Below, in pieces: positions 6,702 through 34,693 of a stretch of DNA of 64,000 nucleotides. Numbering within the stretch: position 1 is the stretch's first letter; each line of letters opens with the position of its first letter. The position numbers and the translations under genes are program-made. The stretch covers positions 11,100,088 to 11,164,087 of the forward strand of contig NC_134031.1 in the NCBI RefSeq assembly GCF_964204645.1, given 5' to 3'. Origin of the DNA: Tubulanus polymorphus (Eukaryota > Animalia > Nemertea). Under the pieces are notes generated by a model. That model was not told the DNA's origin. It saw only the letters and a program-made list of their open reading frames with translations, and searched no databases.

Positions 6702-6721
6702 TTAATTTTTTTGTTAAATAA

Positions 6722-8192: not shown

Positions 8193-8198
8193 CTTATT

Positions 8199-8568: not shown

Positions 8569-8577
8569 TTATTTTAG

Positions 8578-10788: not shown

Positions 10789-10809
10789 TTATTATACATC
10801 TTTTTTTAC

Positions 10810-11293: not shown

Positions 11294-12281
11294 ATTCAGT
11301 AAAACTTTTCCCGTCCAGATTTTGAAACATCATTTGACTCAATTTTTCCTCCTAGAAAATTGCTTTAGCTCATTCCAATGTTCGCAGTTAAATTGAATTG
11401 TAGCATGTATGATTCCCATCCATCAATTTTGTCTTGTTTTGTATTTTTAGCGAAATCATCTCGAAAAAGACTGACGTCAAGGCAGGTGGTGGCCAGAAAA
11501 AGAAATATTCTTGGGAAATATTTAAAGACGCATGGCAAACACACTTATTGTTCACTTTTTCCAATCCTTATTTTGAAATTGAAGTATTGTAATTAACTAT
11601 TGATTTATTTTTCTTGATCAACGCAACTAGTTTTGTTGTTTTCTTTCTTAATTTACATTTGATTTGACAATTTCTGTCCATATCACGTTGATTCGGCTCG
11701 AAATCTTGAGGAAATGTAGCCAACGTAAATTGATTTACGAATAGAATTAATCAATTGACTCATTTTAGAAATCATGGTTTCGTGAAATTCATTAAAGTCC
11801 TAAAACTCGCGATAAACTTTAAGCCGAAAATGATTTCAACCATCCACCAAAAAAATTGTTGCGCGCCGGCACTGTACTGATATGTGTCCTGCCTGAATGC
11901 ATGGTTTCACTAGGATTCGAACCCTCAATCTCTCACTTGGGAGTCAAACACCTTATCCACCCTGCCACAGGACAGGACGCGTCTTTTATCGTTAGTGGGA
12001 GTACGCGACACGGCGAGTGGCGATTGCTACTATCATCCGGTGTTATCTTACAGTAAGTAATTTTAAGTTTAAAATAGGATAGAGAGTGCATAGATAGAAT
12101 CTACGCGGAAAGAATGAGTGTTATATTACTATCACAATTCTAAATTTCGATTAGAAGCTGTTAGTTGTCGAATCTGATAGAAGATGAATTTTATGTGCGA
12201 AAAAAAGTGGAAAATATGTAAATAATAATAATAATCAACAGAATTACAAGAGGGTTTTCGATGAAAGTCAGAAAACCCTAA
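11294..12281 (-). mobile_element. host non-autonomous Helentron/DINE-1-like element
   Basis: end palindrome AGGGTTTTC..GAAAACCCT next to a (TTA)n tract; inverted copy at 34382-34998 plus 36612-36981. Confidence 0.6.
11902..11973 (-). pseudogene. tRNA-derived (SINE-head-like) sequence inside the host repeat
   Basis: A box TGGCAGGGTGG, B box GGTTCGAATCC, CTCCCAA loop; acceptor stem does not pair. Confidence 0.65.
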
Positions 12282-12372
12282 TGATGATGATTATAAACCT
12301 ATTATACCAGAAAATAAGTCAAATGTTAAAGTCATTAAAAATAAATCTAAATTATTATTAACGGATTAAAAT

Positions 12373-13440
12373 ATGATGAAAAAAGAACAATATCTAAGAG
12401 ATTTATATTATAACCCAGAGAGTGAAGTATCATATTCTAGTGTTTCAGAATTATGGGATAAAATAAAATTTGATAATGAAAAAATAAAATATAGTGAACT
12501 ACGATTATGGTTACAAAATCAACCAACATATCAAATCCATAAGAAAATGGATACAAATTATTTAACAAAAAAAGTTATGGTTTCATATATCGATCAACAA
12601 TGGCAAGCAGATTTAATTGACATGAAGAACTTAGAAGAATACATCAATGGCTATTTCTGGATACTGAATGTTATAGATATATTCAGTAGATACGCATGGA
12701 GTATACCAATCAAAAATAAAACTGGTATAGAAGTTACTAATGCATTTAAAGAAGCTATTCCAGGTAAGATACAATTTGATGAAGGTAAGGAATTTTATAA
12801 TAAATATTTAAAAAAATTATTATCTGATAACAATATAGAGTATTTTTCAACACACTCAGATAAAAAAGCATCTATTATAGAAAGATTTAATAAAACATTG
12901 AAAACTAGAATGTGGAAATATTTTACTGCTAATGAAACATATAAATATATCGATGTGTTAGATGATTTAGTGAAAGGTTATAGTAATTCTAAACATAGTT
13001 CTATAAATATGAAACCTATACAAGCTAGAAAAGAAGATAATTCAGAAATAGTTTGGAATAATTTATATGGTGCATTTGTTACACATGATTTTGGAGAACC
13101 TAAATTTAAAATTGGTCAACATGTTAGAATATCTAAATATCGAAAAACATTTTATAAAGGTTATACTCCAAATTTTACCCAAGAAATATTTGAAATTAAA
13201 AAGATAATATTAACTAAACCATTTGTTTATGAATAAGAAGATTTAAAAGATGAAGAAATATTAGGTTATTCTTATGAACAAGAATTATCACTTGTACCAA
13301 ATCCAGATGAAATAGAATACAAAATAGAAAAAGTATTGAAAAAAAAAATCTTAAAGGAAAAAAGTATTCTTTAGTGAAATATAAAGGGTACGATGATAAA
13401 TTTAATGAATGGATTTTATCTAGTAAAATTAAAAGATTAA
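12373..13440 (+). pseudogene. rve integrase plus chromodomain, family A copy 2 (stop at 13234, then frameshift)
   Basis: DDE motifs as in 7222-8192. Confidence 0.9.
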
Positions 13441-14038
13441 ATGAATAAAGATTTATTTATATTTGAACCGCATAATATTTTAGTAACTGGTGGTAACACA
13501 TTTCATGTTAGATTTGTTAGAAACTATTTATAAGAATCATTTTGATAATATAATATTATTCTGACCTACTCATGAAATGAATAAAGCATATAATAGGGAT
13601 ATAGTTAAGATTAAAAAGTTTATTATATTAGATCCTAAAACAGTAAAAGAAAATTTAGATAATTGTATAAAAATAGCAATTGATATTTATAAAGGATCAA
13701 ATACATTATTCATCGTGGATGATTGTGCTAATTTACATGATTCAAAAATGCGAGAAAGTGAGTTATATTATTTAGCTTTTTCTGGAAGACATTTTGGGAT
13801 AACAACCTGGGTTTTAAATCAAAAATATAATTCAATTGTAAAAGATTTTAGAGAAAACATTAGATTTTTAGTTTTATTCTACAATAAAGATAAAAAATCT
13901 ATGCACCAATCTCTGGAAGAAAATCAAATTATACCTACTGACTTACATGATGAATATATGAATAAATTAAAAAGTGATAAAGGTTCCAAATTACTTCTGA
14001 GACTACAATATCCATATGAATATAAATTTATAAAATAA
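13441..14038 (+). pseudogene. packaging ATPase, family A copy 2 (Walker A partly deleted)
   Basis: LFIVDDCA, GRHFGITTWVLNQKY. Confidence 0.85.
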
Positions 14039-14333
14039 AATCATAATTTAAGTATTTATGTATTAGATACGTATTAGGTGCCTTAATACTTAAAATTTGA
14101 AATATTATAGAATTTTTAATTGTGTATGAGTGGACGAGTCGACGAATTGGACGAAATGGACAAGGGTAACATATGTAATTTATATATGTATTTTATTTAA
14201 AAAACAGTACGAGTTTGATATTAACTTATTTTATCAATTTATGCTATATTTAAATATTATTTTAATAAAATATAAAAAAGACATAGGGGTTTATTTCAAA
14301 TAAGACCCCCTGTCGTACACTCGTACACTCGTA

Positions 14334-14630
14334 CGATGTAAGACAACATCGATCTCTTAGCTGATAAAAGAGTAATTAGTTCAAAGTTCGATTAATTCTA
14401 CTACAGAAATACAAAACCAACAAGCCAGCTTTCAGTACAACCATGTCAGCAAGCCCATTTTTAGAATTTCTTTCTTGTTCTATTTTATAGTTAGAGGTAG
14501 ATTCTGTTACATCTTCTTTTTTTGTTTCAATATAATCTTCTATTTTAGGTTCAACATTATTTTCTATTTTAGTATCAATATTATTTTCTATTTTAGTATC
14601 AATATTATTTTCTATTTTTGTTTCAATATT
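14334..14630 (-). pseudogene. 3' half of acidic-repeat gene split by the family B insertion
   Basis: matches ~32985-33280; 5' half is at 30752-30918. Confidence 0.85.
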
Positions 14631-14694
14631 AATAATTAGAAGATGGCGTTTTAAGCCCAGAGTACTAGAGTACTAGCTCTCATCACCACAAGTC
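14631..14694 (+). repeat. family B TIR (contains YY1-like AAGATGGCG)
   Basis: inverted match to 30702-30751. Confidence 0.9.
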
Positions 14695-14941
14695 TTATCA
14701 CAGCTAGGCGCTAGTGAGAACGGACGATTGCTCTGTGATAAACATATACAGTGAGTGCGCGTAACAACAACTGCGCGTGGATAGATCGATACAGCGAGGT
14801 GCTACTGAAAACGGTTATTAACGTGTGTGTTATTACTGTAGTACAGTGATTGCGTGTCAACTGTGCCCGGATAAATAGATGCTGTGAGGCACAAAAAACA
14901 ATTTGAAATGAAAAAGTAATTTTTTGCTTTTTTCTAAAATA

Positions 14942-15307
14942 TTAATCCATTTTTTGTATCGTCAATTTTGGAATTTCAGAAGTATTTTCATTTTTGATAG
15001 CAGTTGTTTCAGAATTATAAATATGATGAATTTTATTTGATTTCTTATACCAATTACGCCCAATCAAAATGAATACAATTACAAATCCAACTGTAAAATA
15101 TAAATATTTATCAAATATTCTATTACCAGAAGGAGTAGAAATAACAATATTTTCACAATTATAAAAATTTTTATTATTTATTCCTTCTTTTTTAGCTTTT
15201 TTATATTCTTGTGATTTAATTCCTAATTGCCGAGACCATTCATTTTGTTTCGGACTTCTCAGGTTTTTCTTCACAGTTAATTCCTTCACTTCTTCTACTT
15301 CGCGCAT
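14942..15307 (-). CDS. single-TM basic protein (121 aa)
   Basis: RSPKQNEWSRQLG similar to RSEKQIKWAKELG of 46668-47030; TAAATG start. Confidence 0.75.
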   Translation of the reverse strand: MREVEEVKELTVKKNLRSPKQNEWSRQLGIKSQEYKKAKKEGINNKNFYNCENIVISTPSGNRIFDKYLYFTVGFVIVFILIGRNWYKKSNKIHHIYNSETTAIKNENTSEIPKLTIQKMD

Positions 15308-15845
15308 TTATTGTAGAACAATTTTTACTTTCAATATTCGAAAATGTTATAACTCCAGTTGATAATAATGTCATAAATCCACCTAATTGAAATGATAAAT
15401 ATCCAATCCATTTATTTAATTCGGTCATAACTAAATAATCATTTTTTAAATCGGAATATAATCTATTTTCATCTTGAATTGGTAGCATATAATTACATAA
15501 TTTACTATAACCTTTTACTTCATTTTCTGATATCGCGTCATTAATTCTAGCTATTCTCGCAGTTTCATGAATCTTAAATAATTTAATAATTTCATCCGAT
15601 TTCATTGTATCTAATTCATTATAAGTTAAATTTTTACTAATAAAACTTTTACATTTCCCAGATGCTATTAATATTTCTAATTGATGTTTACAATAAAGAT
15701 AATATTCATAATTATTATTTGTTGTAACATTATTTAAAGCACCATCATCTGGAGTTAATTTTGTTTCTGTTATTCCTAAATCATTTAAAGTTTTTTCAAT
15801 TGGAACATCACCATTTTTAGATTTTATTTTCTTTTTACCTCCCAT
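15240..15845 (-). CDS. conserved Polinton hypothetical protein (201 aa)
   Basis: intact ORF; homologs in A copies. Confidence 0.8.
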   Translation of the reverse strand: MGGKKKIKSKNGDVPIEKTLNDLGITETKLTPDDGALNNVTTNNNYEYYLYCKHQLEILIASGKCKSFISKNLTYNELDTMKSDEIIKLFKIHETARIARINDAISENEVKGYSKLCNYMLPIQDENRLYSDLKNDYLVMTELNKWIGYLSFQLGGFMTLLSTGVITFSNIESKNCSTINARSRRSEGINCEEKPEKSETK

Positions 15846-15879
15846 TTATATAACGAAAAAAAATTAGTTGTGATGTTGC

Positions 15880-16151
15880 AACTAGCATTTAACTAGAATG
15901 TAACTAAAAATCAACTAGATCAACAAACTAGTTGAATTATTATTGTTTTTATTTATTTCTTGTTAAATCTAGATGATTTTTGTTCCAACTACCAATAACT
16001 AGAATTCAACTAGAATGTAACTAAAAATATACTAGATTAACAAGCTAGTTAAAATATTGTTGTTTTTATTTATTTTTTGTTTCAACTACCAATAACTAGA
16101 ATTCAACTAGAATGTAACTAAATATGTAATAGATTAACAAGCTAGTTGAAT
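15880..16151. repeat. imperfect ~100-bp tandem repeat rich in AACTAG
   Basis: repeated CAACTACCAATAACTAGAATTCAACTAGAATGTAACTAAA. Confidence 0.75.
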
Positions 16152-16761
16152 TTAAATAAATTCATATTTAAATGGGTGCTGTAATCGAAATAGTAATTTT
16201 GATCTTTTATTATTTTTCAATTTATCCATATATTCATTATGTAAATCATGGGGAATAATATCATTTTCCTCAAGCGCATTTTTCATCGATTTTCTATCTT
16301 TATTGTAGAACAAAACTAAAAATCTAATGTTTTCTCTAAAATCTTTAACAATTGAATTATATTTTTGATTTAAAACCCAAGTTGTTATCCTAAAATGTCT
16401 ACCAGAAAAAAGCTAAATAACATAACTCACTTTCTCTAACTTTTGAATCATGTAAATTTGCGCAATCATCTATAATGAATAATGTATTTGATCCTTTATA
16501 TACATCAATTGCTATTTTAATACAATTATCTAAATTTTCTTTTACTGTTTTAGGATCTAATATAATAAATTTATTATTTTTAGTAATATTTCTATCATAA
16601 GTTTGATTAAATTCATATGTTGGACAAAATAATACTATATTATCAAAATAGTTTTTATAAACAGTTTCTAATAAATTTAATATAAAATAAGTTTTTCCAC
16701 AATTTTTTACACCAGAAATTAACATATTATGAGGCTCAAATATAAATAATTCCTTATTCAT
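16152..16761 (-). pseudogene. packaging ATPase, family B (frameshift near 16400)
   Basis: GVKNCGKT, LFIIDDCA. Confidence 0.9.
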
Positions 16762-17892
16762 TTATATATTTTTAATTTTACTTGATAATATCCATTCATT
16801 GAATTTATTTGGCCATGCAACCCATTGTACTAAAGAATATTTTTTTCTTTAAACAGTTTTTGTTTTTAATACTTTTTCAATTTTATATTCTTGTTCTAGA
16901 TTTTCAGTAGTTAAACTCAATTCTTCTTCATAAAAATACCCATCAACTTCTTCACCATTTAAATCTTCTTATGTATAGACATATGGTTTTGTTGTTATTA
17001 CCTTTTTCATTTTATATATTTCTCTAGTATATATTTCTCGATCGTATCCTTTATCAAATATCTTTTTATACTTAGAAATTCTAAAATTTTGACCAACTTT
17101 AAATTTAGGTTCACTAAAATTATCTACAAGAAATGCTCCATATAAATTATTCCAAATAATTTCAGCATTTTCAGGTTTTCTAGCATCAACAGGTTTCATT
17201 CCAATAGAAGAATGATAAGAATTATTATATCCTTCCATCAATTTTCGTAAAACATCAATCCATTTAAAAGTATTATTTGCTGTAAAATATTTCCACATTC
17301 TTGATCTTAATGTTCTATTAAATCGTTCAACAACTGCTGCTTTTTTATCCGATTTTGTTGAAAAATATTTAATATTATGATTGTCTAAGAGTTCATGAAC
17401 AAGTGAATTATCAAATTCTTTTCAATCATCAAATTGTATTTTTTCTGGTTTTAGTTTATCATCCGAAAGAAATTTTCTTAAAACATTTGATGTTTGTACA
17501 GCATCTTTTCTATAAAGTGGGAAGCTCCATACATAACGACTAAAAATATCAATTATATTCAATAACCACCAATAATCATCATTATCTTTCTTAACATTTT
17601 TCATATCAATTAAATCTCCTTGCCACTGTTGATCTACATAACTTACCATAGTTTTACGAGTTTTATATTTTCTAACAATTTTTTTATGTGTTGTATATGT
17701 TGGTTGTACTAACATAAATTCATTTATATCTTTATATTTAACTAAATTTTGTGGGAATATCTTATCTAATTTATCTTGTTTTACTTGACGCCATATATTT
17801 TTGGTAGAAGAATAAGCAACTGAACTCTCAGGGTTGTAATATAAATTTCTTAAATATTGTTCTTTAGTATTAGGAGTTTTTTTACCACCCAT
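16762..17892 (-). pseudogene. rve integrase plus chromodomain, family B (in-frame stops)
   Basis: WQGDLIDM, IDIFSRY, IQFDD, VERFNRTLR. Confidence 0.9.
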
Positions 17893-17922
17893 TTATATAT
17901 CGTTAATTTTAACTTTATATTT

Positions 17923-19170
17923 CTAATATTGAATACTATCTAATTGTGAATTTACAATATTTAATTGTGCGTCAGATATAATATAAATGTGCATTTTGAA
18001 ATTTAAGCTTCCTTTTTTCTTTTTCATAAATAATTGTATTCCATCTTTAGTGTTCTGTAGTTTTTTCCCAAAACCATGTAATGAATTATCCTCTGTTGTT
18101 CTAAAATCTAACCATAATGCATATTTATTGCCGGCATAATTATCAATTTGATTAATATTACAATTTTCAGATGATTTTACTTTTTCATTCATAAAATGTT
18201 TTCTAATTTCTGGCCATTGATCTATCATTCTCATTCCTTGACAAAATATTTTATTTGCTATTCCTTCGATAGTTATTTCTACTTTTGTTATTTCAGGATT
18301 ATAATAATTATCTACCTTTATTGCACCATTAGAATATGTTGCAATGGTAAAAAATATTAATATACTTTTAATAGATCTTCTTGGGGAGTTAATATTCTCA
18401 TTAATAATTTCATCATTTGCATTAATAGTTACGGTTTTAAATTTATCAATATAATCATTGAATAATGAAAATCCTTGATTGTATTGAGTTTGAATTGTAT
18501 TAGGAATATTTTCATTAGTTACTTTATTATATTCTAAACATATATTCGATAATTTATAACCCATATCTTTATTAACGCTAGATAATACAATTTCATTTAC
18601 AGGAGCAAATGTTATTTCGAATATAATATCTTCTTGAATTGCGTATTTATATAAAGGCGCATTATTATTTATCAATTCAAAGTCTAATGGAATTTTATAT
18701 TTGCTTCCATAAATCTTTTTTATCAAATTATCTGTAGCATTAGTTACTATTTCGTCATTAGCTCCTGATCTTAATTTATTTTGGTTTTCCGATTGAATGC
18801 CTTGAAATATCATATTATTTCTATTTTCTTTAGTTAACCATAAATCTTTATAATGTATAAATAAATTATAATCATCTAATGAGAAAACTGTTTCTGGGCC
18901 GATCTTTATAGTTAATTTTTTAATCAAATATCTTCCAACATTATCAACAACATAATTATTATTATTACTGGATACTTTTATATCGGCTGATAAATAAATA
19001 CTATTTGGAACATAAAAAGTATTTTGTGTTAATCTGGGGATTCTAACATATAAAGTTTCATCAGGATTAATATTAGAAGGATTATGAGTAATTATATGAT
19101 GTGATCTTTCTGCTTTAATAGCATTAGATATCCTATGATTCTTAGAAGGATTGATATAACTCCAACTCAT
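17923..19170 (-). CDS. major capsid protein (double jelly-roll), intact 415 aa
   Basis: size, beta-rich pattern, position and conservation across copies (ITHNPSNI, YALWLDFRT, HIYIISDAQLNI). Confidence 0.8.
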   Translation of the reverse strand: MSWSYINPSKNHRISNAIKAERSHHIITHNPSNINPDETLYVRIPRLTQNTFYVPNSIYLSADIKVSSNNNNYVVDNVGRYLIKKLTIKIGPETVFSLDDYNLFIHYKDLWLTKENRNNMIFQGIQSENQNKLRSGANDEIVTNATDNLIKKIYGSKYKIPLDFELINNNAPLYKYAIQEDIIFEITFAPVNEIVLSSVNKDMGYKLSNICLEYNKVTNENIPNTIQTQYNQGFSLFNDYIDKFKTVTINANDEIINENINSPRRSIKSILIFFTIATYSNGAIKVDNYYNPEITKVEITIEGIANKIFCQGMRMIDQWPEIRKHFMNEKVKSSENCNINQIDNYAGNKYALWLDFRTTEDNSLHGFGKKLQNTKDGIQLFMKKKKGSLNFKMHIYIISDAQLNIVNSQLDSIQY

Positions 19171-19189
19171 TTATTTAACAAAAAAATTA

Positions 19190-20648
19190 ATTATTTATTT
19201 TTGATTATGTTTATTTTTTATTATTTTTTCTTGATATCTTTTTGATATCATATTCACTAACCCCAAAAAAATTGCACTTACAACTGTAATTAAAAATAAA
19301 ATAATATGTTCAGCAGCAAAGTTAAGAATATTCCCAGTAGATTTCAATATAAAACCAACAATTGATGCAATAACTCCGGGTAATGCTGCAGAAGATTTTG
19401 TAGATAGTTCCCATAAAATTTCTTTAAACCATCCTTAACTTTATCTTTTATAGAATTATTATGATTCGGGGGTTTATCCGGTTTATTGGGAGTAGGAGTA
19501 GATTTCAGTGAATTTGATATAACTAAACCAATTGTTGTGAATACCATAGTTACAGCCGTTAGAATTGAAAGAATTGTTATTCCTTCTAATTTAGATAATA
19601 ATTTTATTCTATCTTTCAATGATATTTTAGAATCTGGTTTTATCAACAAATCTTTAAAAACATATTTTAATCTTTTAAAATTATTACCAAATTCTGTTAA
19701 TAATATATCTCTTTCACCTTTCTGTACTTCTACATTATCTTTTAAATTATCAATTTCTTTTTCTAAACGTAATTCTTTTTGCTTATATTCTATTTCATCA
19801 ATTACTTGATGATCTAAATCAGACTTTAATTGTTCTATTTCTTCATTTGCATTAGTTAATTCTTTTTCCAAATACATAATTTTTTGATATCTTATACTTT
19901 TATTATGCGCAATTTTATCAGCATCATTTCTTATACTAATAATTTCTCTAATTGCTTCATTAGAAAATATATCTAAATCTTCTAATTCTTGATCTGTTGC
20001 ATCAAGTAATCCATTTGGTAAAAGTTTTTCAATTGGTACTTTATTTGATTTAAGTTTACCAGAAGTTGTTTCTGGTTCTAAATTATTATTGATTGTTTCA
20101 AATAATTCATTAATTCTTTGTTTAAATAATTTTTTATTTTGTTTTATTTTTTCTTGTGTTACATTTTCTATTTCATTATCAATACTTATTTTTTTTATTC
20201 TATCTGGTTCTAATTTTTCCAAAGTTGATTCTGCTAATATTTTGTTTTGATTTTTATAAGAGATATCAATATAATAATCTTTTTCCAAACGATAATAATA
20301 TTCACCATCTAAGAATTCTAAATCTTCTACTAAAAGTCTAGCGCCTCTAGCATTTATATTATATCCAGATTTTTCAAATATAGGTTTGAATTTATGAATA
20401 TATTCAATATATTCTAAATCTTGTCTTACTAAATCTGGATTTACATTTTCCGGATTTATTCTCGATATAGTTTTTTTAACAAAATCATCTGTTGATAGTC
20501 CTTTATAACCACTATCTGTTAAATTAGAATTATATGATGATTCATTATCAATATTAGTTTCTGCATCATTATAATCATCATCAATATATCCTTCATTATT
20601 ATTTTCCATTTCTCCCATTTCATAATCTTCTACACCTTCTAAATCAAT
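19190..20648 (-). pseudogene. acidic/coiled-coil protein with C-terminal TM helices
   Basis: ORF 19344-20618 with a frameshifted tail; homolog 5159-6701. Confidence 0.75.
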
Positions 20649-20664
20649 TTACATAATAAAAAAA

Positions 20665-21966
20665 TTAAAATTTAAAATATAATATTCCTCCGATTACAAT
20701 TCCTATACAAGTTAAAGCTAATTTAGCATTTTCATGGGATTTATTATCATTATCAGTTTTAATTATTTCATGTTGAATATTATCAGTTTTAATATTTTCT
20801 GTAGTATTGTAATCTTTTATTTTAGAATCATTATTTAATTTAATATTATTAGTTTTAGTTTCTGTTGATTGAATATGTTTTTTATTTTTTTCACCTTCCA
20901 TTAATTTTGGAGCAGTAATTATCTTTTTATTTATATCATTTAATCCAAATGAATTATTTATTGTTGCAGTTTTAATTAGATTATTATAACCAATTATATT
21001 TCCCATCTTTAATACTAAATCATTACAAATAATTAATAGATTAGGGCCTATACAATAATTTAATCTAATACGTGATTTATCTAAATAATTTTGATATCTT
21101 ACAAGGTTTTCTGGAATCGATCTATTTTTATCATTATGAATAGAATCTTCAAATAATACTTTGAATTGTTTCTGCGCATCAAATGAAGTACTATCATTGC
21201 CAACTATTGGTGATCTTGTTTCAACTTGTGCACCTAAAATACAAATTAAATAAGTTCTAATTGATTGATTTATTCTTTGTATACCAGGTTTTGTAAAACC
21301 TTCACCATTATCTATAATAAAATTATTCCAACCATCATCATTATCGATTTTATAATTATGATAAGCTGAAATTCTATGCATATAATCAATTCTTTTTATT
21401 TCATACTCTTCACCTATACCTTGCAATTTACCATGCGCTCTAAAATCGGAATTAATATTTATATTAAATTCATTACATATTTTATAAAACTTAGATAGAT
21501 TAATATTATCATCCAATTCTTTAAAATATTCCGATCCAGGTAAAGGACATTCTTATTCATTTAATATAATTCTAATTTGAAAGTATGTATGAAATCTAAA
21601 TATTGTATGAATGAATTTTAAATCTGAATAAGACAAATTGTTATATAAATTATTCAAGTGATCATTCCAACTTATACGACACCCTGTTGTTGCACAATAA
21701 ACAGCAAAATTTAATTGATTCTGCCAATATTTCATATTAGATTTTATTTTATATATATTATAATCATCTCGAGTAAAAGTAACTTCGTATGTATTAAATA
21801 TGTTTTCCATTCTAGAAATGAAAAACTTTGTTTCAGTAACATAAATTTCTAAATTAATTAATGAAGGTAAAACTACATTTTTATATGTTATAATACTATT
21901 AAAATCTATAGGTGGAATTAAATATCTATATGAATTATTATATTGGAAAGCTTTTGGAAACCCCAT
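20665..21966 (-). pseudogene. conserved Polinton protein (QLNFAVYCATTGC), one internal stop
   Basis: ORFs 21553-21966 and 20665-21516 are in frame. Confidence 0.8.
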
Positions 21967-21982
21967 TTATATAATTAAAAAA

Positions 21983-22417
21983 TTAATAATTCATTAATTC
22001 TTTTAATAATTTATCTTGTTCTTCAACTGTTATATGGCCATTTAAACTTATTATATAATCTAGTGTATTATTCAATTTATTAATTTTTTTTATATTAGTT
22101 TTAATTTTTTCTTTATTACTTTTTATATTTAATTTTGAACTTATACCAGTTAAAACACTTGATGATAATCCTAACACGCCAATTGATAAAGCTAAAGGTG
22201 TTAATGGTGAGAATATTGCTAGAAATGTTATTACAGAACTAATTGTAACTGAACTACTAATAATAAGATAATATATAATTTTACTTTTTAAATATTTTTT
22301 CTTTTTTATCTTTAAGTCACTTTCAAATTCTAATATTTATTTTTCTAAATATATTTTTAATTTAGTTTTATTTATATCATGAGGAATAATATCAATATTA
22401 TCAACTTTATCATCCAT
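21983..22417 (-). pseudogene. two-TM coiled-coil protein
   Basis: homolog 3328-3762. Confidence 0.7.
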
Positions 22418-22436
22418 TTATTTAACAAAAAAATTA

Positions 22437-22859
22437 CTAATTAGTAAATTTATATGCAACAAATATAACAATAACTGTTCCACCTAAAATCCAAATTGTT
22501 TCATATTTCTGTTGTTCTTAAATTGGGGTATAATAATCTAATTATTTAGGTTTGTATAACTGTAATTTTTCTTTATTGGTTACCGCGTTATATAAACTCA
22601 TTGCATCATCAACTGATTGAAAATCTCTATGTGAAATCTTCTGATCATATAATTCTTTGTTAATATAATCCATATAGTTTTGCCTCTTTTCTCTGTATTC
22701 TTCTGCTGCTTTATTGTATTTCTCTAATGCTAAGTTATGTCTTTTTTGTTCTTCTAATGAACTATTTTTATCTATATGCCTAAATAAATAACTACCACCA
22801 GTAAATGCTAAAGCGTTAACAATTGTTGTTCCTATAATAGTTAGAATTACAGAAGCCAT
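22437..22859 (-). pseudogene. membrane protein, premature stop
   Basis: homolog 2877-3300. Confidence 0.7.
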
Positions 22860-22884
22860 TTATTTAGCAAAAAAATTATGTAAT

Positions 22885-23105
22885 TTTATAGGAGGAATAT
22901 ATTTTTATTTTTCCAAATAATCAGTAGTTAAATTAGATAAAGTGACTGCTAATGTTAATTTTAAGATATCATTTATATCAAATCTATCAACATTAACACT
23001 TCCCATTTTTAATACTTTTTTAAATACCATTGAATAACCAACAGTTCCAACTGATAGTAATGCTCCATTATATAATCCAGTTATTATCCACTTATTATCA
23101 CTCAT
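22885..23105 (-). pseudogene. small hydrophobic protein
   Basis: homolog 2631-2852. Confidence 0.7.
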
Positions 23106-23112
23106 TTATTTA

Positions 23113-23466
23113 TCAAAAAATTACTATTATTTCTTCAAAATATTTAGTTATCTTAGTGATGATTAATTCAACATTTATTTCATTACTAGTTTCATTTGTA
23201 TATATTTCAAATATTATTTTTTTAATATCATCGATGATAAAATCTTCATCTAATTCATAAAATCTTAAAGATTCTCTAATTAAATGAGTAATCTTTTCTA
23301 CATTTAAAGTTTCTTTATCTATTGTTGTTTCATACTCAAATGTTGTTTCATTAAAAAATGCAATATTTTTAATATGTATAATTACATCATCAATGTTAAA
23401 TTTCATTTCTTTCTCACGTTTAAAATCAAATCCAAAACATATACTCGGTCCAACGGTTATATTCAT
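23113..23466 (-). CDS. conserved hypothetical protein (117 aa)
   Basis: homolog 2289-2630. Confidence 0.75.
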   Translation of the reverse strand: MNITVGPSICFGFDFKREKEMKFNIDDVIIHIKNIAFFNETTFEYETTIDKETLNVEKITHLIRESLRFYELDEDFIIDDIKKIIFEIYTNETSNEINVELIITKITKYFEEIIVIF

Positions 23467-23482
23467 TTATATAATGAAAAAA

Positions 23483-24240
23483 TTACTCTCTACATCTTAT
23501 AACTAATTCATATATCACAGGAAAGTTATTTAAATCAATTAAATATCCATTATGAATTCTTATTTCTAACTTAAAATTGTTAAAACTCGAAATACAAGGT
23601 TTAAATCACATTCTGTTAAATTATAATCTATTTGTGTTCAAAATTGTTTAACATTTTTTAATGGTAAAATATTTAATATACTAGAATTGCAAGTTTAATC
23701 TTTAGTTGCTTCGAATGTTTTTGTAACATCAATTAAATTGCAATAAATATAAAAGTGTGTGTAAGGTATTATATTTGAATTACCTTCTATGTTTCTTGTA
23801 ATATTATGCGGGCTAATTCCTAACAGTTTAGCTAAAGGTTTTCTTACTAAAAATGCGCATTTGTTAGCATCATCTAACTTTATTTTAATTTTATCAGAAC
23901 TATCACTTTTTGAAAATCTAATGTTAAATCTGGTATCACTTTCTAATTTAACTCGAGCTTTTTTATTAATTTCTTGCGCTAATGTATCTAAATTATATAA
24001 TCCTGGTTTAAGATAAAGATGAAACCATTTACTTTTATTAGTATCATGAACTAAAAAGACTTTATGTTCAAGACTTTTATTCGATATATTACGAAAAGAA
24101 TTACATAAACTTATATTTACTAATTTCAAATCTACACAATTTCTAAATTCTCTATCTAATTGTACTAATAAATTATGAGATTTATAATTTGTAAGTTTTC
24201 TTGAATCAACAAATATTCTATATTCTTTTAATTCTACCAT
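23483..24240 (-). pseudogene. minor capsid protein (penton), disrupted
   Basis: homolog 63003-63758; stop at 23695. Confidence 0.8.
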
Positions 24241-24309
24241 TTATTTATAACATAAAAAAATTACCGCTCATCACTAAAAATTAACTTTAATAAAATTTTT
24301 CCTAAATAA

Positions 24310-25626
24310 ATGAATGAGAAGATAGGATGTGAAATTTGTGGTGAACTTATCAGAAAAAGTAATATGGCTCGACATATGAAAAAACATGATGAAAAGTATA
24401 AACCCCCTAAAATAAACTGCCCAAAATGTAATGAATTATTCTCAAGAAATTATGTTAAAAAACATTTAGAGAGGTGTAAAATTAATAGCGCAACGGCTAA
24501 TGTTGATAGTAATGAAACTAATAGTAATTCGGTTGAAGTTGAACCTGAAATTATTTGGAAAAGACCTTTCTTATTCTATGATAAGGATAATATAAAAGAT
24601 CGTTTCTGTGAGCCTTGTCGAATGAAATTTAGTCCTGAAAATATAGAAGATTGGGAAAATCATCAATTTCGTAAAATACATATAGATGAAATTTCTAATA
24701 AATTTGAAACTGAATTTAATGAAAGAAAAAATAGTTTATTAGAAAAAATAAAATATGAGAAAACGTTTCCAGATAATGAAGAAACAGTTAGAAAAACAAT
24801 ATAATGAATTAGTAAGATTGTAAATCATTGTAAATATTGTAAATTGATTATTACAACAAGTAATTCAAATCTACATAATAGAGCAATAAAACATAAAGAA
24901 AACGTAAGTAAATACCAAGAACGTAATGAAGATCTATTACCAAGCTATGATAGACAAAAATGCCCAAAACGTATTTATGGGCACTTAAGAGAAGAAGGTC
25001 CTGTGATATTTTGTAATGAATGTGGATGGCAAAGGAATTTATGGGGTGATGAAAAAACTAGAGATATTTTTATAGAACCAAAATTGAAATATCTAGATGA
25101 AATATTTAATATATTTTCTATGGAAGATCATAAACCAGAATATAAGCAATGGCTTGAAAAAATGAAAATAATAGAAAATAAAAATGGTGAAATAACTAAA
25201 AAAGATATAATAAAAACAATTATTCCATCAACATTTAACACACAAGAAAAGAAAATGTATTTATATTTATTAATTAACGATTATTATAAAAAACCTAAAT
25301 TAACAGAAAAAGATATGGAAAATATAAAAGACATATTCAAACAAATATTAAGATATTATGTGGATAATAGAATAACAGATTCAATTAATTATGAATTCTT
25401 CTTAAATAAGATTGTAAATTATTTAAACATCGATATTATAATTCCATTTGATGAATTAACAAACAAAAAGAAACAAAGAGAGCGAGATGAAATGTGGAAT
25501 AATATAGAACTTTATTTAAATGAGAAAAATGAAATTGAAGAACCTAAACAAATTATACAAGAACAATTAAATGAAAAAGAAGAAACCAATAGTGATTTCG
25601 AGTTTGATGATATTGATCCATTTTAA
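24310..25626 (+). CDS. multi-zinc-finger protein fused to a poxvirus VLTF-3 (A2)-like late transcription factor domain; two adjacent in-frame stops at 24802-24807
   Basis: CEIC..H..H, CPKC, CEPC, CKYC fingers; C-terminal CNEC, DIFKQI, SINYEFFLNKI, EMWNNI resemble vaccinia A2 as recalled. Confidence 0.65.
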
Positions 25627-28600
25627 TAATCATAAGGTAATGTTTTTATACCATCATCTGAAATATGTCTTTTATCATCAAATGGATTCAAACTAGTTTT
25701 TTCAACTTCATTAATGTACATCTCGTGATCTTCTGATCTTAAACAATTCATTTTATGTTTCATTACAATTGAGTTATATAACACATTTATATAATCTTGA
25801 AATTCTATGTGTTTATCAACCACATGCTTTGTTATTCCTTTTAATTTTTTAGCTTCATGGTCTTTTGTTCTATAACTATACATTTTACTTCTAATCCCAA
25901 CAAATTCAATCATTTCATCACCCCCTAATTCATCTTTAAATTTACCAGGAATCTTTTTATTATCATTGCTAAATAATTCATGATCTTTGGGATAATTGCT
26001 AAAATAAAAATGATGTTTTAATGTTTTTAAGTCTTTTGTTATGTCATTTGTCTTGATTTTTAGTATGTAACTGTCAGTATTGAACGCAATTAATGGAAAT
26101 CCACAGTTAAATGTACCATCTTCAGTTGATAAATCATAAACATAATCTGTTGGGTTATATATTTTAAATAAATCTTTAACTTCTTCTGTTAACTCATTTT
26201 CTACATGGCTTAAATTAAAGCAATTTGGTTTAGATTTAATCAATCCAATATTCATATTAAAACCTAATGAATTACATAATATATTCAATCCTGATATAGC
26301 AACCTTTCTTTTTTGAGCTAAAGATATTGTTTTGCGGTTTTTGAAACTTTTTGAACTATCTGCAGCATAGAATCCAATGAAGAACCATTTTCTTAAATTA
26401 TTTTTTGCATTTAATACATAATCTGGAACTATCTTTTCTTTTGTTGAAGTATTACTTTTCACTATTGCATGAATATAGAATTCATCATTATATTTTGTAG
26501 CAAAATCTTTAGGATTATTTACAAATATTCTATAAACCGCGGATGATTTCATATGATCCACGATCCTAAATGTTTTATGTGAATAAACTTCTTCGCAGAA
26601 TTTCTTTATTCTTTCTAATAATTTCAAATCTTGATTGCATAAATACCAACGATATTGAGTGCGATTAACATATTTATACACACCTGCTGAACCATCACCC
26701 ATGAAAAATCCTTTGATAAAATATTCTTTTTCTTCTAATGTTTCAGGTTCTATATTATAAATATTATCAATAATTTCATCGAATGACATATGATTCATTC
26801 TTTGGAAAAATCTTTTATGTAATAATTCATCTCCAATTTTTATATCAGTTGGTTTTATTTCATCACCATTTCGTTTAATTAACTATGATCTTCTGTAACA
26901 TCCAAAAACCCTAATTTAGTTCTAACTCTATAGATTTGCTTATTTGTTTCATGTCTAATAATATTCTTTAATTTTTTCCATCCATTTCTTGTCCAAACAT
27001 CTATTAATTCATTTATTTGTATTAATTCTTTTTCACCATACGAAATATAACATTCATTTTGTTTTGGAATTATTTCTGAAATTCTTCTTATCAATATTTT
27101 ATCATTACATTTTAATGATATTGGGGTGGCAGCTGGTTCAGAATCAAAATATAATATTTCAATATGCTTTTCCCCAAAAAGTGGTTGCAAAACATTATAA
27201 TAAAAATCATACATTAATAATTTTGATACTTCTAAAACAGTTGAACCAATGAATATAGGTTTATTAAATTTCATTGACGTTCTTTTTAATTTAACTGCTG
27301 TTAAATAATCTTCAAATCTTTTATTTCCTAAATGTCTAGGACTTGATTGTAAATGTCTTAATCTTTCAGAATTATTTACTAATTCAATATCATTTCTATT
27401 TCTAATATTTTCACATGTTTTACCATAAAAACTATTATTCATTAATTTGAAGAAATCTTTTTCAAAATCTGTTTTAGATATTGTTCTCTGTTGAGTATTG
27501 AAATCAATATATTTTTCTAACCACTTCGATTGATTAAATTCAATATATCTATGCACTTTCTTTAATTTCATTCCTTGTTTTAGATAAAATTTTAACATTC
27601 TATAATGAACGATATTATTGTATTTATTATTTTGAGTAAGTATTAATTTTTCTGTAAAAACATATCTTTCGGTTTTATTTTCTTCTGGTATTCACTTAAA
27701 TAACTATCATCTACGGTTAAATGTTCTGGGCAATAAGGTAAGTTTCTTGTTTTAAACTTTATATTTTCAGGATATTCTAAATCAACTACGAAGAAATAAC
27801 CAATTGGTGCTTCATTTTTTAAACTCGCAATTGCGCTTTCCCAATCAGTTTTATCATCATTTTCAACTTCTGTTAATATAAAATTTTTATATGGTTGAGG
27901 TTGCATCATTGCCCAACCATATAAATTATTGGCGTCAATATATAATAATTTATATTCATCATTTGCTTTAAAATATCTTTCTCCCATAACACCACTAATT
28001 CCACCTCTAATTGATTTTTTCAAATAATAAAACCATATCTGGTTCTTTTAATAAATCTAATTCTACATTTGTATATTTTAAACCACATTGCCAGGTTAAA
28101 CCAGGACTAGAGTAGCAATAACAAGGATCAACATTAAAATGATTCAAATTAACTTCTCTAAATTTTTCAAATATGTCAGCCAATATCATAACATCTGATT
28201 TTAAATATAAATCAACTAATTCACCATGATTTTTCATCTTAAAATGGTTCCAAATATTTAATGTTCTATTAAACACTTCATCTTTCACATACTCCTCTTT
28301 TAATTGATCATAAAATTGATCTTTCAATAATTTTGTTACATTAAAATCATCATGTGTTTTATAAAATGAATAAGGAATTGCGCCTTTATATCTCAATAAT
28401 TCAAAATCTTGTTCATTTGGATAATAATGTCGAGTTATTATAAAATCATTATCAACTAAACTTTTTGATAAATTATCTAATGAACTTGCTAGAAATCTAT
28501 AAGAATCTAAAAATCTAATGCAACCAAATTGAAATGAAATATAATTTTCAGATGTTTTAGCTAATAGTTTAAAATCATATTTTCTTACATTTACACCATT

Positions 28601-30683
28601 CATAGCATTATATTCTTCTATTTCTTGATTAATTGTGCCCAATTTTCCTGATAATTGTTTTATAAATAGATGGGTATCATAGCCTGATAAATTATGAAAT
28701 AATATTGGTACGAAATTAACTTTCTTAGCTTGTAAATTGCAATCTTCATGAGCAGCTCCACGATATTTTGAATTTAAATGATCATGATCTCTAACTTTTT
28801 TATCAAATGAATAAAAACGTTTTTCACAATAACAACAATGAGTTGCATAATTAAAATCAATTTCATCTTCTTTTGTCATAACTATTCTTTTATTTTTGTT
28901 TAATAATTTTGCAAAATCACTTTCTAATTATTTTGTTACAAAAATTATTAACTACATCTTCACCTCTAAAAGAAATATATTGACTTTGATATAATTCAGG
29001 ATAATTTGATTTTATATAAATTCCATAAGCAGCAGCTCTTTGATGAACTTTTTTAATTGTGTTTATAATTGGTGGATCTTGTGTTGTGTCTTCATTTAAT
29101 TCATTTCCTTTTATCCATTGATTTTAATAATTGCTTTTTGTTATATATTTCTTTTCTATCTTGATCAGTTAATTCTTTATTCAACGATTCAAAATCCCCA
29201 TAAATTACAAATGGAACAATATTCTTAAATTTATGATTAGTAAATTTCAATTTATAATCTTTTTCTGTTGGCATTATTAATTTACAAAAATCTTTATTAT
29301 CTCATAATTCTTTATGTTTTAGTATAGCATTCTCAGTTCTAAATTTAGATAAACATTTTCTACATAGATACATTTTATGACTGTTAAAATCACTTTCTGT
29401 TCTAAAGAATAAATCAATTTGTTTTAACCACATATAATGTTCCTTTTCATCTTTTTTGTAATATAACAAATCTATAGCATTTTCATCATAATAATATTCT
29501 GTTAAATATAAAGCTTCCAATGTACAATCTTTAATATTTTCACCTTTTGTCTCTGGTAATTGCATTAATTCGAATACATTTATTTTTAACTTATTAACTT
29601 TTTCTATTTTGGGTATCATTTTTATAGTTACTGGATATTGATCAATTTTATATAATGTTTCATATTTCCGGTAATTTGTTATTCTAAATCTATGATTAAT
29701 ATCTTCTGTTGGATGTAAGCAACTAATAATTGACCATAGAAAACATTTATTATCTTCATTTTGAACATTTATTACTGCTTTTGTTGTAAATGGTAATTTA
29801 ATATAAGATGATGCTTTAATATCCTTTTCTGTTATAAAGTTTGTATCATTTTTAAACATTTTATTACTTTTTGATGTTTTATTTCTTTTTGTATTATAAA
29901 CATTTAAATCTAAATATATAATTTCATTTAATGATAAACCAGAACCCTCAAAATGAATTTCTTCAATATGACGTTTAAATTAATTAAATATTTTTTCTAA
30001 CTTCTCTTTTATTTGTGTTTTTGAAATTATTTCTTCAGAGAGTGTTTGAATATTATAATCCATTTTTTAAAAAAAAAACTTACTTTCCCAGAGATACTAA
30101 TTTTTGGATATTCAACATCTGTTATCAAATCTAGTATTTTTTCTATTATTTCATTAAATTTACTATAATCTTCTATTGTTATACCTTTAAAAAATCTAAA
30201 TATAATAGCTGCAGGACCACTTTTACTATGTAATGTTTCTAAAATTTCAATTGTATCTATTATTTCAAGAGTATCGATATAATTTCTAACATTTTCAATG
30301 TAGGGTTTATTTGAAATGGATTTAGTTTTTGAAGTTGGTTTTTTTACTTTTTGAGGTTTATCATCGAAATAATCTTTTCCTAAAACATTATTACTCAAAT
30401 TTTGATGGTGTTTTTGTGATTCGAGATGTCTATTATAATTCCTTTTTACTATAAATTCATTACAAAGTTCACATTTTATTTCATCCACATTCATATTTTC
30501 TAATCGTTCTTTTCTTTCATTGGAATTTTCTGAAGTTTCAAAATCTATAACATTTTTTATATGATTTGAAGATTTTTCATGTTTAGATTTATTAGATTTA
30601 TCGATGTATTGTTTACAATATGGACAATAATATTGATTTTTATTAACATTATTGTTTTCTGGCTGATGTTCATTCTCCCCCAT
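25623..30683 (-). pseudogene. polB: protein-primed DNA polymerase B, family B, intein-containing, several frameshifts and stops
   Basis: N-terminal zinc fingers, NKCFLW, EndoVII-like RDHDH..AHEDCNL, FHNLSGYD, YIDANNLYGWAM, KLMNNSFYGKT, YFD^TDSY. Confidence 0.95.
26079..27142 (-). other. LAGLIDADG homing-endonuclease intein (~355 aa) at the Pol-c site; 1-bp frameshift near 26880
   Basis: starts Ser (SEPAATPI) after YFD; block B DVTEDHS(L); GFFMGDG and GFYAADS motifs; block F YVYDLSTEDGTF; ends Asn before +1 Thr; absent from the other pPolB copies. Confidence 0.95.
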
Positions 30684-30701
30684 TTATAAGGAAAAAAAAT
30701 T

Positions 30702-30751
30702 ACTTGTGGTGATGAGCGCTAGTACTCTGAAAACGCCATCTTCTAATTACT
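30702..30751 (-). repeat. family B TIR
   Basis: inverted match to 14631-14694; followed by TSD AATATT. Confidence 0.9.
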
Positions 30752-30918
30752 AATATTACCTTCTTTTTTTGTTTCAATATTCTTTTCTATTTTATTTATT
30801 CCATATATTGATTATAGAATTCTCCAAAATACTTACTATATTCATCATAAGGTATTATATAATATATATCTGATGTAATTTCTCTTGGACTTTGTATTTC
30901 ATATATTCCTCCTTCCAT
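30752..30918 (-). pseudogene. 5' half of the acidic-repeat gene interrupted by family B
   Basis: MEGGIYEIQSP.. as in 33030-33497. Confidence 0.85.
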
Positions 30919-30950
30919 TTATTATAGAATTTTTTATTAAAATTAAAATT

Positions 30951-31450
30951 TTAATACATAACACTATTCAATTGAGAATTTACAAGATTTAATTGCGCGT
31001 CAGATATAATATAGACGTGCATTTTGTAATTTAAACCTCCTTTTTTCTTTTTCATGAATAATTGTATTTCATCTTTAGTATTCTGTAATTTTTTCCCAGA
31101 ACCATGTAATAAGTTATCTTCAGTCGTTCTAAAATCTAACCATAATGCGTATTTATTACCGGTATGATAATCAATTTGATTAATATTACAATTTTCAGAT
31201 GATTTATTTTTTTCATTCATAAAATGTTTTCTAATTTCTGGCCACTGATCAATCATTCTCATTCCTTGGCAAAATATCTTATTTGCTATGCCTTTTCTAG
31301 TTATTTCTACTTTTGATATTTCCGGATTATAATAATTACCAATATTTATTGCGCCATTAGAATATGTAGCAATTGTATAAAATTTAAATACGCCTTTAAT
31401 AGATATCCTTGGGAAGTTAATAATCCCATTAATTATTTCATCATTCGCAT
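30951..31450 (-). pseudogene. MCP 3' fragment (family A copy 2)
   Basis: YALWLDFRTTEDN, ISDAQLNL. Confidence 0.85.
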
Positions 31451-31479
31451 AAAATTAAAAGAATAAATGAATAAAGATT

Positions 31480-32230
31480 CATCAATATGTATAGGAAATT
31501 AATCTTTTTCATTTTCATATTTTTCTTTAAGCTTATTATATTCAAACAATATATTCCTTTTCATTGATATTGGTATAATTCCTAATTGATTCCCGAGTTT
31601 ATATTTATTGAATGTTTCTCTTGAAAATATTTTTGGAATATAATTTTCGATTTCATTTTTAGATGGATGTTTATTTAAAAATTATCTAAAATCATCATAT
31701 TTAAGGTCAAATAAGTTCATCGCATAAGTTACATTTGGTTTAAAGTTGTCTAACTTTTTCAATACGGTAACTATATCATTTCTCGAGAAGTAATCTATAA
31801 ATGTTTTTCTATACCACCGATAATCTGATATATTCATTTTATTGAATTTTGGATTTATGATTAATCGATTTTCTATTACATTATCTGTACCTATATGTTT
31901 AATCGAGTATCTATGATTCAATTGTTTATCATATATTACATATTCTCTACATTTTTTCACACCAAGATTTAAATACGTGTATTGCATGGACTGAATCATT
32001 TCCACCTTTTGTTTTTAATCTATAATGTTTTGACCAATTAGCCTTTGTTATACATTCATTACAGAAGGTGCAATAATTTTGATCTTCTTTGCATTTATCT
32101 TTATATATATTAGCATACGTTTTTACTAATTGTAAAATATGTTCAGCTTTTTTGATATGAAATAAATAATAACTATAATTATTAAATCTTCTTCACAATA
32201 CATGCATCTAATGATATCTTTTGGTTTAAC
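31480..32230 (-). pseudogene. degraded AT-rich zinc-finger gene fragment, probably a Polinton accessory gene
   Basis: YCTFCNECITKANWSKH upstream of ORF 31682-32005. Confidence 0.4.
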
Positions 32231-33029
32231 ATTTGATTTTCATGGGCTCGCATGCTTGCAAGCCCATATTGCTATCACACGGATTGATAACTTGCTTGGG
32301 GAGTCGATAACTTTCGTTAGAAACTTACTTGGGCTCTGATATTTACACATATTTAATGCACTAATAAAATCTAGGTTCCTTTCGTATATTGGCTAGATCG
32401 GTTGTCGTTTTCATTTTTTTTATGATTTTGTTTCATCGTTTTTGTTATTTCAGCAGCGCATACCAACCTTGGTTGAGCGTGCGTGATCAGTCTTGAAATT
32501 GGTATTCATGCGCGGCATAGTGCTGCCGACGATTCAATTCATTCTTTATTGACAACTAAAATTTCACAATAAAACATTTACTTTCACGTTTGTAAATAAT
32601 TCTTTTAATTTTCTTTTGCTTTCATTGGGCGCTTGCTTTAGCGGCCATGTGAAAAATCTCTGTATGAACATTTATGTTTTTCAGTATAAATATCTGAAAC
32701 TTAAAAACCGCTTTTCTGTAAAATAAATTCTGAATTGAATTGAAGACTGGTTGCCTGTCTCCAAAGAGCCAGGGGGCAGTAGTCTATGGTGGCAATAAAA
32801 TTTATCGGATGATCGTAGTGGATTGTCATTTGAAGGAAATGCAACTTATTCTTGCTTAATGTCTTTAATATTTTAAAAAGAAAAATCTTGGTTCCTATCT
32901 ATTTTCGTGTTCGCTTCTCTTCCACTTGGTCCACGTCTACAATAAAACCATTCCGATTCCCTGTCCCCGTGTGTAACATTTTATGTAACGATGTAAGACA
33001 ACATCGATCTCTTAGCTCTTAAAGATTAA

Positions 33030-33497
33030 TCAGTTCAAAGTTCGATTAATTCTACTACAGAAATACAAAACCAACAAGCCAGCTTTCAGTACAACCATGT
33101 CAGCAGGCCCGTTTTTAGAATTTCTTTCTTGTTCTATTTTATAGTTAGAGGTAGATTCTGTTACATCTTCTTTTTTTGTTTCAACATTATCTTCTATTTT
33201 AGGTTCAACATTATTTTCTATTTTTGTATCAATATTATTTTCTATTTTAGTATCAATATTATTTTCTATTTTTGTTTCAAAATTATCTTCTATTTTAGAT
33301 TCAACATTATCTTCTATTTTAGATTCAATATTATCTTCTTTTTTTGTTTCAATATTCTTTTCTATTTTATTAATCCTATATTTGAATTGATTATAGAATT
33401 CTCCAAAATACTTACTATATTCATCATAAGGTATTATATAATATATATCTGATGTCATTTCACTTGGACTTTGTATTTCATATATTCCTCCTTCCAT
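33030..33497 (-). CDS. acidic protein with 8-aa repeats (KIEDNVES-like, 24-bp units)
   Basis: TAAATG start; N-terminus shared with 44103-44570. Confidence 0.7.
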   Translation of the reverse strand: MEGGIYEIQSPSEMTSDIYYIIPYDEYSKYFGEFYNQFKYRINKIEKNIETKKEDNIESKIEDNVESKIEDNFETKIENNIDTKIENNIDTKIENNVEPKIEDNVETKKEDVTESTSNYKIEQERNSKNGPADMVVLKAGLLVLYFCSRINRTLN

Positions 33498-33529
33498 TTA
33501 TTATAGAATTTTTTATTAAAATTAAAATT

Positions 33530-34381: not shown

Positions 34382-34693
34382 ATTAGGGTTTTCTGACTTT
34401 CGTCGAAAACCCTTTTGTAATTCTGTTGATTGTTATTATTATTATTTACATATTTTCCACTTTTTTTCGCACATAAAATTCATCTTCTATCAGATTCGAC
34501 AACTAACTGCTTCTAATTGAAATGTGAAATTCTGATAGTAATATAACACGCATTCGCTCCGCGTAGATTATATCTATGCACTCTCCGTCCTATTTTAAAC
34601 TTAAAATTACTTACTGAAAGATAACACCGGATGATAGTAACAATCGCGACTCGCCCTGTCGGTTACTCCCACTAACGATAAAAACAGCGTCCT

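Follow-up and report, generated by a model that had tools for sequence, protein, structure and literature searches.

A Polinton-type element of Tubulanus polymorphus belongs to a clade whose genes start with a poxvirus-type late promoter motif

A decayed Polinton-type element and its genes

We analyzed a 64,000-nucleotide stretch of the genome of the nemertean Tubulanus polymorphus (RefSeq assembly GCF_964204645.1, contig NC_134031.1, positions 11,100,088 to 11,164,087; hereafter the window, in whose coordinates all positions are given). It contains a Polinton-type element of 16.1 kb, with ends at exactly 14631 and 30751, whose genes begin with a motif resembling the late promoter of poxviruses. 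This promoter signature is real and clade-wide, and it sits on an otherwise known kind of element. An earlier reading made from the letters alone (the sequence-only reading) had proposed that a poxvirus-like helper virus switches such elements on.

Mavericks, or Polintons, are recognized by terminal inverted repeats (TIRs) with a 6-bp target duplication, by a pPolB and an rve integrase, and by a double-jelly-roll capsid protein with an A32 ATPase. The element has each of these, the pPolB and integrase genes being identified by Pfam (DNA_pol_B_2 and rve) and both broken. Its TIRs are imperfect, about 63 bp long on the left and about 50 bp on the right, with 18 of the 19 outermost bases identical, and the flanking duplication is AATATT. 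The insertion target was a 24-bp tandem array within a gene of a sister element, in which the flanks join up (14333-14631 corresponds to 32988-33285, and 30752-31453 to 33327-34032). The GC content is 21-26%, bearing out the earlier description of the element as very AT-rich. Comparison with the relatives L001 and L002 guided the assignment of fourteen genes. In the list, "motif" denotes an ATAAATG start.

14625..14630, no strand: left target-site duplication (AATATT)
14631..14693, plus: left TIR, imperfect
14942..15307, minus: 121-aa open reading frame (ORF) with a hydrophobic segment, motif; homologues only in the close clade
15240..15845, minus: 201-aa conserved ORF, function not assigned, motif
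16152..16761, minus: A32-type packaging ATPase, frameshift near 16410, motif; Pfam Pox_A32, E 5.6e-7
16765..17892, minus: rve integrase with in-frame stops, motif; Pfam rve
17923..19170, minus: double-jelly-roll major capsid protein, 415 aa, open frame, motif; AlphaFold and Foldseek
19198..20660, minus: coiled-coil and membrane-segment gene, broken, start decayed (the sole start without the motif); from relatives
20665..21966, minus: conserved gene of about 440 aa, function not assigned, in-frame stop, motif; from relatives
21983..22417, minus: two-membrane-segment gene, weakly SLATT-like, broken, motif; domain scan and relatives
22443..22859, minus: small gene with in-frame stop, motif; conserved throughout the capsid family
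22905..23105, minus: 66-aa hydrophobic ORF, motif; from relatives
23113..23466, minus: 117-aa ORF, function not assigned, motif
23486..24240, minus: putative minor capsid protein, frameshifted, motif; pattern only
24310..25626, plus: zinc-finger and VLTF3-like (TFIIB cyclin-fold) gene, broken near 24800, motif; Pfam, fold and L002
25623..30683, minus: pPolB gene, broken, intein-bearing, motif; Pfam DNA_pol_B_2
26079..27142, minus: intein with LAGLIDADG endonuclease at the polymerase motif-C site, frameshift near 26882; Pfam and homologues
30702..30751, minus: right TIR
30752..30757, no strand: right target-site duplication (AATATT), adjoining the right TIR

The AlphaFold model of the capsid protein (predicted local distance difference test score, pLDDT, 87.9) matched PBCV-1 Vp54 (E 2e-17) and the double-jelly-roll capsids of Singapore grouper iridovirus (SGIV) and mavirus in Foldseek. 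The integrase of an intact relative combines rve and chromo domains. By its sequence pattern the product of 23486..24240 is probably a minor capsid protein; it had no database match. No adenain-type protease was matched by Pfam in any ORF scanned, several unassigned ORFs not having been folded. The claim that the element has no RNA polymerase of its own held up: Pfam and NCBIfam recognized no subunit, poxvirus type included, in the window or in the 12 close loci described below, though a divergent one could escape them. Scans of IMG/VR found no relatives of the capsid, pPolB or TIR.

The element had also been called complete. Its exact ends, TIRs and duplication agree with this, but its genes do not: stops or frameshifts interrupt at least nine of the 14, including those for pPolB, integrase, ATPase and the VLTF3-like protein. 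The present copy is decayed and is not itself capable of activity. These breaks require no introns, because the intact relative L002 maps collinearly, and the element can still be described as intron-free. The window holds further fragmentary copies with 68-96% identity to the element. In one DNA sequencing run with the same species label, of which about 12% was read, 47,299 reads were placed on the region at ≥90% identity but only 1,157 at ≥99%, and depth over the element ranged from 67 to 830; the element therefore belongs to a diverged multi-copy family. Another run, which we guessed to be RNA, yielded a single 20-base match, no sign for or against expression.

A strict motif at the gene starts

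Thirteen of the 14 genes start with ATAAATG, which follows a T-rich tract at a constant distance, and the sister copy at 41377 keeps the motif for the fourteenth (19198..20660), whose own start has decayed. By comparison, TAA precedes 40 of the remaining 631 ATGs in the element. A scoring matrix trained on metagenomic relatives only, with the window excluded, gave the 13 starts a mean of +6.2 bits versus -6.5 for the 40 other TAAATG sites (p=2e-7). The upstream sequence is fixed as well: T at -12 and -13 and A at -18 and -4 each distinguish starts from non-start TAAATG sites at p<1e-8. T stands at -12 in 50 of 59 starts versus 38 of 120 non-start sites (p=1e-11) and at -13 in 48 of 59 versus 40 of 120, a peak 9-10 bases ahead of TAAAT (81-85% versus 32-33%).

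The vaccinia late promoter has been described as TAAAT(G) spanning the start codon, the 10th base upstream being a conserved T (PMC11980589), and as having a T-rich core 5-7 bp ahead of TAAAT (PMC5294985). In sequence, the start motif of the element agrees with these descriptions, having TAAAT followed by G over the start and an upstream T within a T tract.

At some starts the upstream tract is A-rich, not T-rich. These are window positions 16761, 17892 and 15307 and the ATPase starts of L001, L002, L004 and L009, so that the ATPase shows it consistently. Such starts perhaps form a second, intermediate-like promoter class; vaccinia A32L has been listed as an intermediate gene.

The motif is restricted to one clade

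An alignment of 50 capsid sequences, used to scan metagenomes, picked out 80 loci, 50 of them with a usable capsid start. TAA directly abuts the capsid ATG (written TAA/ATG) in 10 of 10 loci at ≥50% identity and in 0 of 40 at ≤42%. On a 48-row capsid tree, built by a quick method from members of this capsid family only, one change explains the distribution of the motif (Shimodaira-Hasegawa-like approximate likelihood ratio test, SH-aLRT, 99). The pattern extends beyond the capsid. In 12 close loci, exactly TAA/ATG opens 45 of the 50 ORFs of ≥100 aa, and none shows a different A-run length; in 13 AT-rich distant loci the count is 1 of 41. Counting ORFs with a homologue across the 12 close loci gives 45 of 55, against backgrounds of 4.3% and 5.3%, and for orthologous genes the close loci show the motif in 37 of 43 cases, the queries being counted in, versus 2 of 194 in distant loci. 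Replication and structural genes alike carry it. AT-richness is ruled out as the cause by the AT-rich distant loci and by L006, which retains the motif despite 44% GC. We conclude that the motif is clade-specific and position-specific and not an effect of composition, which makes the case for poxvirus-type late promoters stronger than the sequence-only reading had put it.

Could the motif be no viral promoter at all but act at the level of mRNA or translation, as a start-codon context or through stop-start coupling on long transcripts? Immediately 5' of the ATG, TAA forms an in-frame stop, and A-rich start contexts occur in AT-rich relatives. Against this stand the fixed T at -12/-13 and A at -18, and the motif is also present on the first gene inside the TIR and on the divergent pair 24240/24310, where there is no upstream ORF to couple. 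The length of the A run is moreover exact in 45 of 45 cases. We consider this explanation very improbable.

We give equally little credence to the idea that the promoters survive as relics from an ancestor that depended on a helper, and that the present copies are dead or spread as transposons only. Every copy in the window is fragmentary or broken, and few reads are near-identical to the region, both as this idea would have it. Yet the motif is kept across capsids down to 50% identity and in the open-gene relatives L001 and L002, which speaks for long-term selection.

A sister lineage (L054:545-5129 and L062:1156) has a TATATA-type context directly before the ATG, like the late initiator of African swine fever virus, and may track a different, asfarvirus-type helper.

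The VLTF3-like gene

The sequence-only reading had also identified a VLTF-3-like late transcription factor, and a lack of VLTF-3 homology was to count against its proposal; such homology was found by sequence and by fold. Pfam PF04947 narrowly matched a 168-aa ORF (27.1 bits, cut-off 25). The Atlas assigned VLTF3 at 0.93, with 29 of 30 matches in VLTF3-bearing clusters and a low recognition value. In a BFVD fold search with the model of the VLTF3-like protein (pLDDT 66), VLTF3s made up most of the top matches; an entomopoxvirus protein ranked 2nd, a cowpox protein 4th and another poxvirus protein 8th, with iridovirus VLTF3s at 18 and 31. The model also matched the TFIIB cyclin-repeat fold at a modest Z of 5.7 (root-mean-square deviation 3.5, 95 aligned), and no solved VLTF3 structure was matched. 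A profile-free full scan of 1.84 billion representatives returned three homologues, and a word-based search found none. P0163 covers both pieces present in the window, and the N-terminus occurs in L002 at 96%; the pieces are therefore one broken zinc-finger and VLTF3 gene, common to at least one clade member. Its homology to the VLTF3/poxvirus A2 family is real by sequence and fold. VLTF3 is common across Nucleocytoviricota and so is not specific to poxviruses, and it has already been published from coral polintoviruses, a Polinton subgroup (PMC11131425).

A protein with a TFIIB-like fold brings up an explanation that needs no helper: host RNA polymerase II (Pol II) would transcribe the elements in the nucleus, where integration takes place, guided by their own VLTF3-like protein, and the motif would be a private core promoter. 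Against this, the sister copies and most close loci have the motif without a VLTF3-like gene, although most loci are partial; because the sister copies lack the gene, it is not needed for the motif. For Pol II, a transcription start that overlaps the ATG is unusual. Nor are poly(A) signals avoided in clade coding regions, where AATAAA was seen 131 times versus 139 expected (52 versus 48 in the window), whereas it is mildly avoided in AT-rich distant loci (59 versus 74). This lack of avoidance lends weak support to transcription outside the nucleus. On balance we think it unlikely that Pol II reads these genes.

The pPolB intein

An intein occupies 27142-26079, at the motif-C site YxD/S...N/TDS of pPolB. 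It is missing from the copies at 58539-62565 and 1-1035 and from locus L006. The sequence-only reading had called it NCLDV-like (like those of nucleocytoplasmic large DNA viruses). The intein itself is real, but this likeness is second-order: the top five of its 10 matches lie in pPolBs (58-42%) and the remaining five in RNA-primed PolBs (37-25%). A tree of the inteins did not settle the direction of transfer (support 63). As a pointer to poxviruses the intein was ruled out, its nearest kin being in Polinton pPolBs and then in Pol-delta-like giant-virus polymerases. It records contact of Polintons with giant viruses other than poxviruses and is uninformative on poxviruses themselves. Promoters, VLTF3 and intein, which the sequence-only reading had called three independent signals, are not each an independent sign of a poxvirus; the intein points elsewhere and VLTF3 is widely shared.

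Related start signals in other large DNA viruses

Searching IMG/VR for the motif pattern gave 60 loci, none recognized as a poxvirus, and so was without a poxvirus positive control. The loci richest in TAA/ATG starts were giant-virus contigs and two contigs that, by their gene patterns, are probably from virophages or Polinton-like viruses (PLVs). With the selecting site removed beforehand, the 16 bin-named loci together have exact TAA/ATG at 24 of 118 starts, and longer A runs are common. The pooled matrix score of giant-virus-bin starts is -0.4, versus -8.3 for non-starts and 5.1-6.2 for the Polinton clade. Bin-wide counts exceed both controls in G001 (37 versus 29 and 20) and G006 (44 versus 21 and 22), and G002 and G005 show no enrichment. 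The G001 capsid is of iridovirus type (best PDB match the SGIV capsid, E 1e-41). In its strict form the motif matches poxviruses best among published motifs, with related start signals in other large DNA viruses.

These bins suggest a helper of another kind. The satellite lifestyle would be the same, and the helper would be a different large DNA virus, most likely iridovirus-like (Pimascovirales). The bins selected by promoter pattern have iridovirus-type capsids, TAA/ATG enrichment and, in G004 and G006, related inteins at the same site; iridoviruses have also been proposed as activators of vertebrate Mavericks (PMC8097293). But the bin motif is looser, with a variable A run and the lower mean matrix score given above, and its enrichment is at most about twofold over controls. 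Iridovirus VLTF3s rank low by fold, and the published iridovirus promoters differ. We regard an iridovirus-like helper as a doubtful alternative to a pox-type one.

A proposed helper virus as the simplest account

For an element that has no polymerase but whose genes all carry a strict viral late promoter, the mavirus model, in which a helper's machinery does the transcribing, is the simplest account. We think it probable that this Polinton clade depends on some large DNA virus as helper to switch its genes on. That a co-infecting cytoplasmic DNA virus of pox type lends its RNA polymerase to these genes is a possibility we favor tentatively. Under a pox-type helper, intact members would be silent while integrated, and infection by the helper would provide the late factors together with the RNA polymerase. 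Transcripts would then begin at the AAA of TAAATG, as near-leaderless mRNAs with a slipped 5' poly(A), and the element would be copied by its own pPolB, packaged in its own capsid and re-integrated by its own integrase. Where present, the accessory VLTF3-like protein might bias the helper's late machinery or compete for it. More speculatively, and in our view rather doubtfully, a whole clade of Polintons endogenous to animal genomes would have taken on poxvirus late promoters in a single step, its members living as inherited, inducible parasites of a poxvirus lineage unseen in these hosts.

Several points weigh against a pox-type helper. The weak point of the mechanism is the first reading of a nuclear copy by a cytoplasmic enzyme; for mavirus, entry of a late factor into the nucleus has been proposed by the authors (bioRxiv 10.1101/068312). 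Neither a helper nor any transcript or particle was seen. The VLTF3 Pfam match is marginal and is lost on the longer 272-aa frame, the sister copies in the window lack the gene, and a Megaviridae protein holds BFVD rank 3, with E-values within threefold among ranks 2-4, so that poxviruses are not set apart. Of the RNA-primed PolBs that carry related inteins, the three compared with the PDB have Pol delta as their best match (E 4e-55 to 2e-99), none being pox-like, and the nearest such carrier, P0182, has an 84% match in a PolB from a giant-virus bin. Bins G004 (L156) and G006 (L157), selected by promoter pattern only, carry short PolB inteins of 234 and 254 aa that lie at the same site and are related to the window's (N-part 46-54%). 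With the selecting site removed, exact TAA/ATG stands at 7/14, 1/7, 3/21, 7/30, 0/6 and 5/17 starts in G001 to G006, respectively. Finally, TTTTTNT, the poxvirus early terminator, gives no specific signal: it is scarce in clade coding regions (15 versus 33), but all T runs are depleted there, and in distant loci too. Of the helper proposal in the sequence-only reading, the argument from promoters to viral late machinery remains a reasonable inference, whereas its pox specificity is weakened by the intein, the spread of VLTF3 and the iridovirus-like bins.

Relation to known systems

The element resembles described Mavericks/Polintons, or adintoviruses (PMC8502044, PMC8097293, PMC11131425), in its TIRs, 6-bp duplication, pPolB, rve integrase, A32 ATPase, double-jelly-roll capsid, intronless genes and mostly decayed copies. 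It differs in its clade-wide TAAATG promoters and pPolB intein, and in that no adenain-type protease was detected. Two preprints have noted a PLV-like lineage of animals that falls outside Maverick groups 1 and 2 (10.64898/2026.06.19.733378, 10.64898/2026.10.13.758929), and the capsid of the element may be a member of it.

The entomopoxvirus-associated PLVs AHEV_PLV1, AHEV_PLV2, CBEV_PLV1 and Ca_PLV1 (PMC11296320) are likewise small, capsid-coding, proposed parasites of poxviruses, with an AT-rich gene style and an A32 ATPase. They were found physically in occlusion bodies and are about 12 kb long. They have protease, lipase and mu-core genes, which Pfam did not detect in the element, and a tyrosine recombinase or no integrase. 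Compared by eye only, three PLV capsids from the supplement of that paper had no obvious motif in common with the element capsid, and the terms "promoter" and "VLTF" are absent from its available text. Mavirus, whose helper is Cafeteria roenbergensis virus (bioRxiv 10.1101/068312), is also an integrating virus with pPolB and rve whose promoters are like its helper's late motif. Its induction and its protection of the host are experimental and concern a protist; the element has a pox-type motif and another capsid family. The late promoters of vaccinia and the cytoplasmic virus-like elements of yeast (PMC11980589, PMC6211774) share the TAAAT initiator over the start codon, the upstream T tract and the predicted 5' poly(A) slippage, but they encode their own RNA polymerase, of which none was found in the element.

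Poxvirus-associated PLVs (PMC11296320) and VLTF3 in Polintons (PMC11131425) are therefore already published. For pox-type or clade-wide promoters in Polintons, or inteins in Polinton pPolB, a literature search whose coverage excluded most subscription journals found no paper. What activates animal Mavericks, and whether they confer virophage-like immunity, has been posed as an open question (PMC8097293), and a clade-specific promoter signature makes the activation question simply testable. If a pox-type helper is involved, an undescribed cytoplasmic virus is predicted in the host, and promoter grammar could assign helper viruses across Polinton clades.

Other features of the window and of relatives

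Sister fragments cluster densely in the window, in both orientations and some nested (1-9533, 12281-14081, 30752-34396, 39204-48761 and 58539-64000); this may represent a hotspot for insertions or a cluster subject to silencing. The element is flanked by what we take to be a tRNA-like repeat and a LINE-like fragment (long interspersed nuclear element), as would suit an animal genome, and a search for RNA families gave no match. An accessory ORF without a Pfam match is present in two copies, 10120-10788 and 49581-50287 (minus strand), with the same start motif, and its Cys/His patterns are suggestive of a homing endonuclease. At 51682-53471, a 40% GC stretch that holds one Cys-rich ORF and another with a PC4 domain (Pfam E 4e-14) is apparently a different kind of element. 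Among relatives, L002 has a deoxynucleoside kinase gene (10343-10981, minus strand) that shares the start motif and is an accessory gene of the kind that large DNA viruses typically carry. Capsid homologues in the P0045 cluster (54%) are filed as Bartonella assemblies and are probably host DNA carried into bacterial records.

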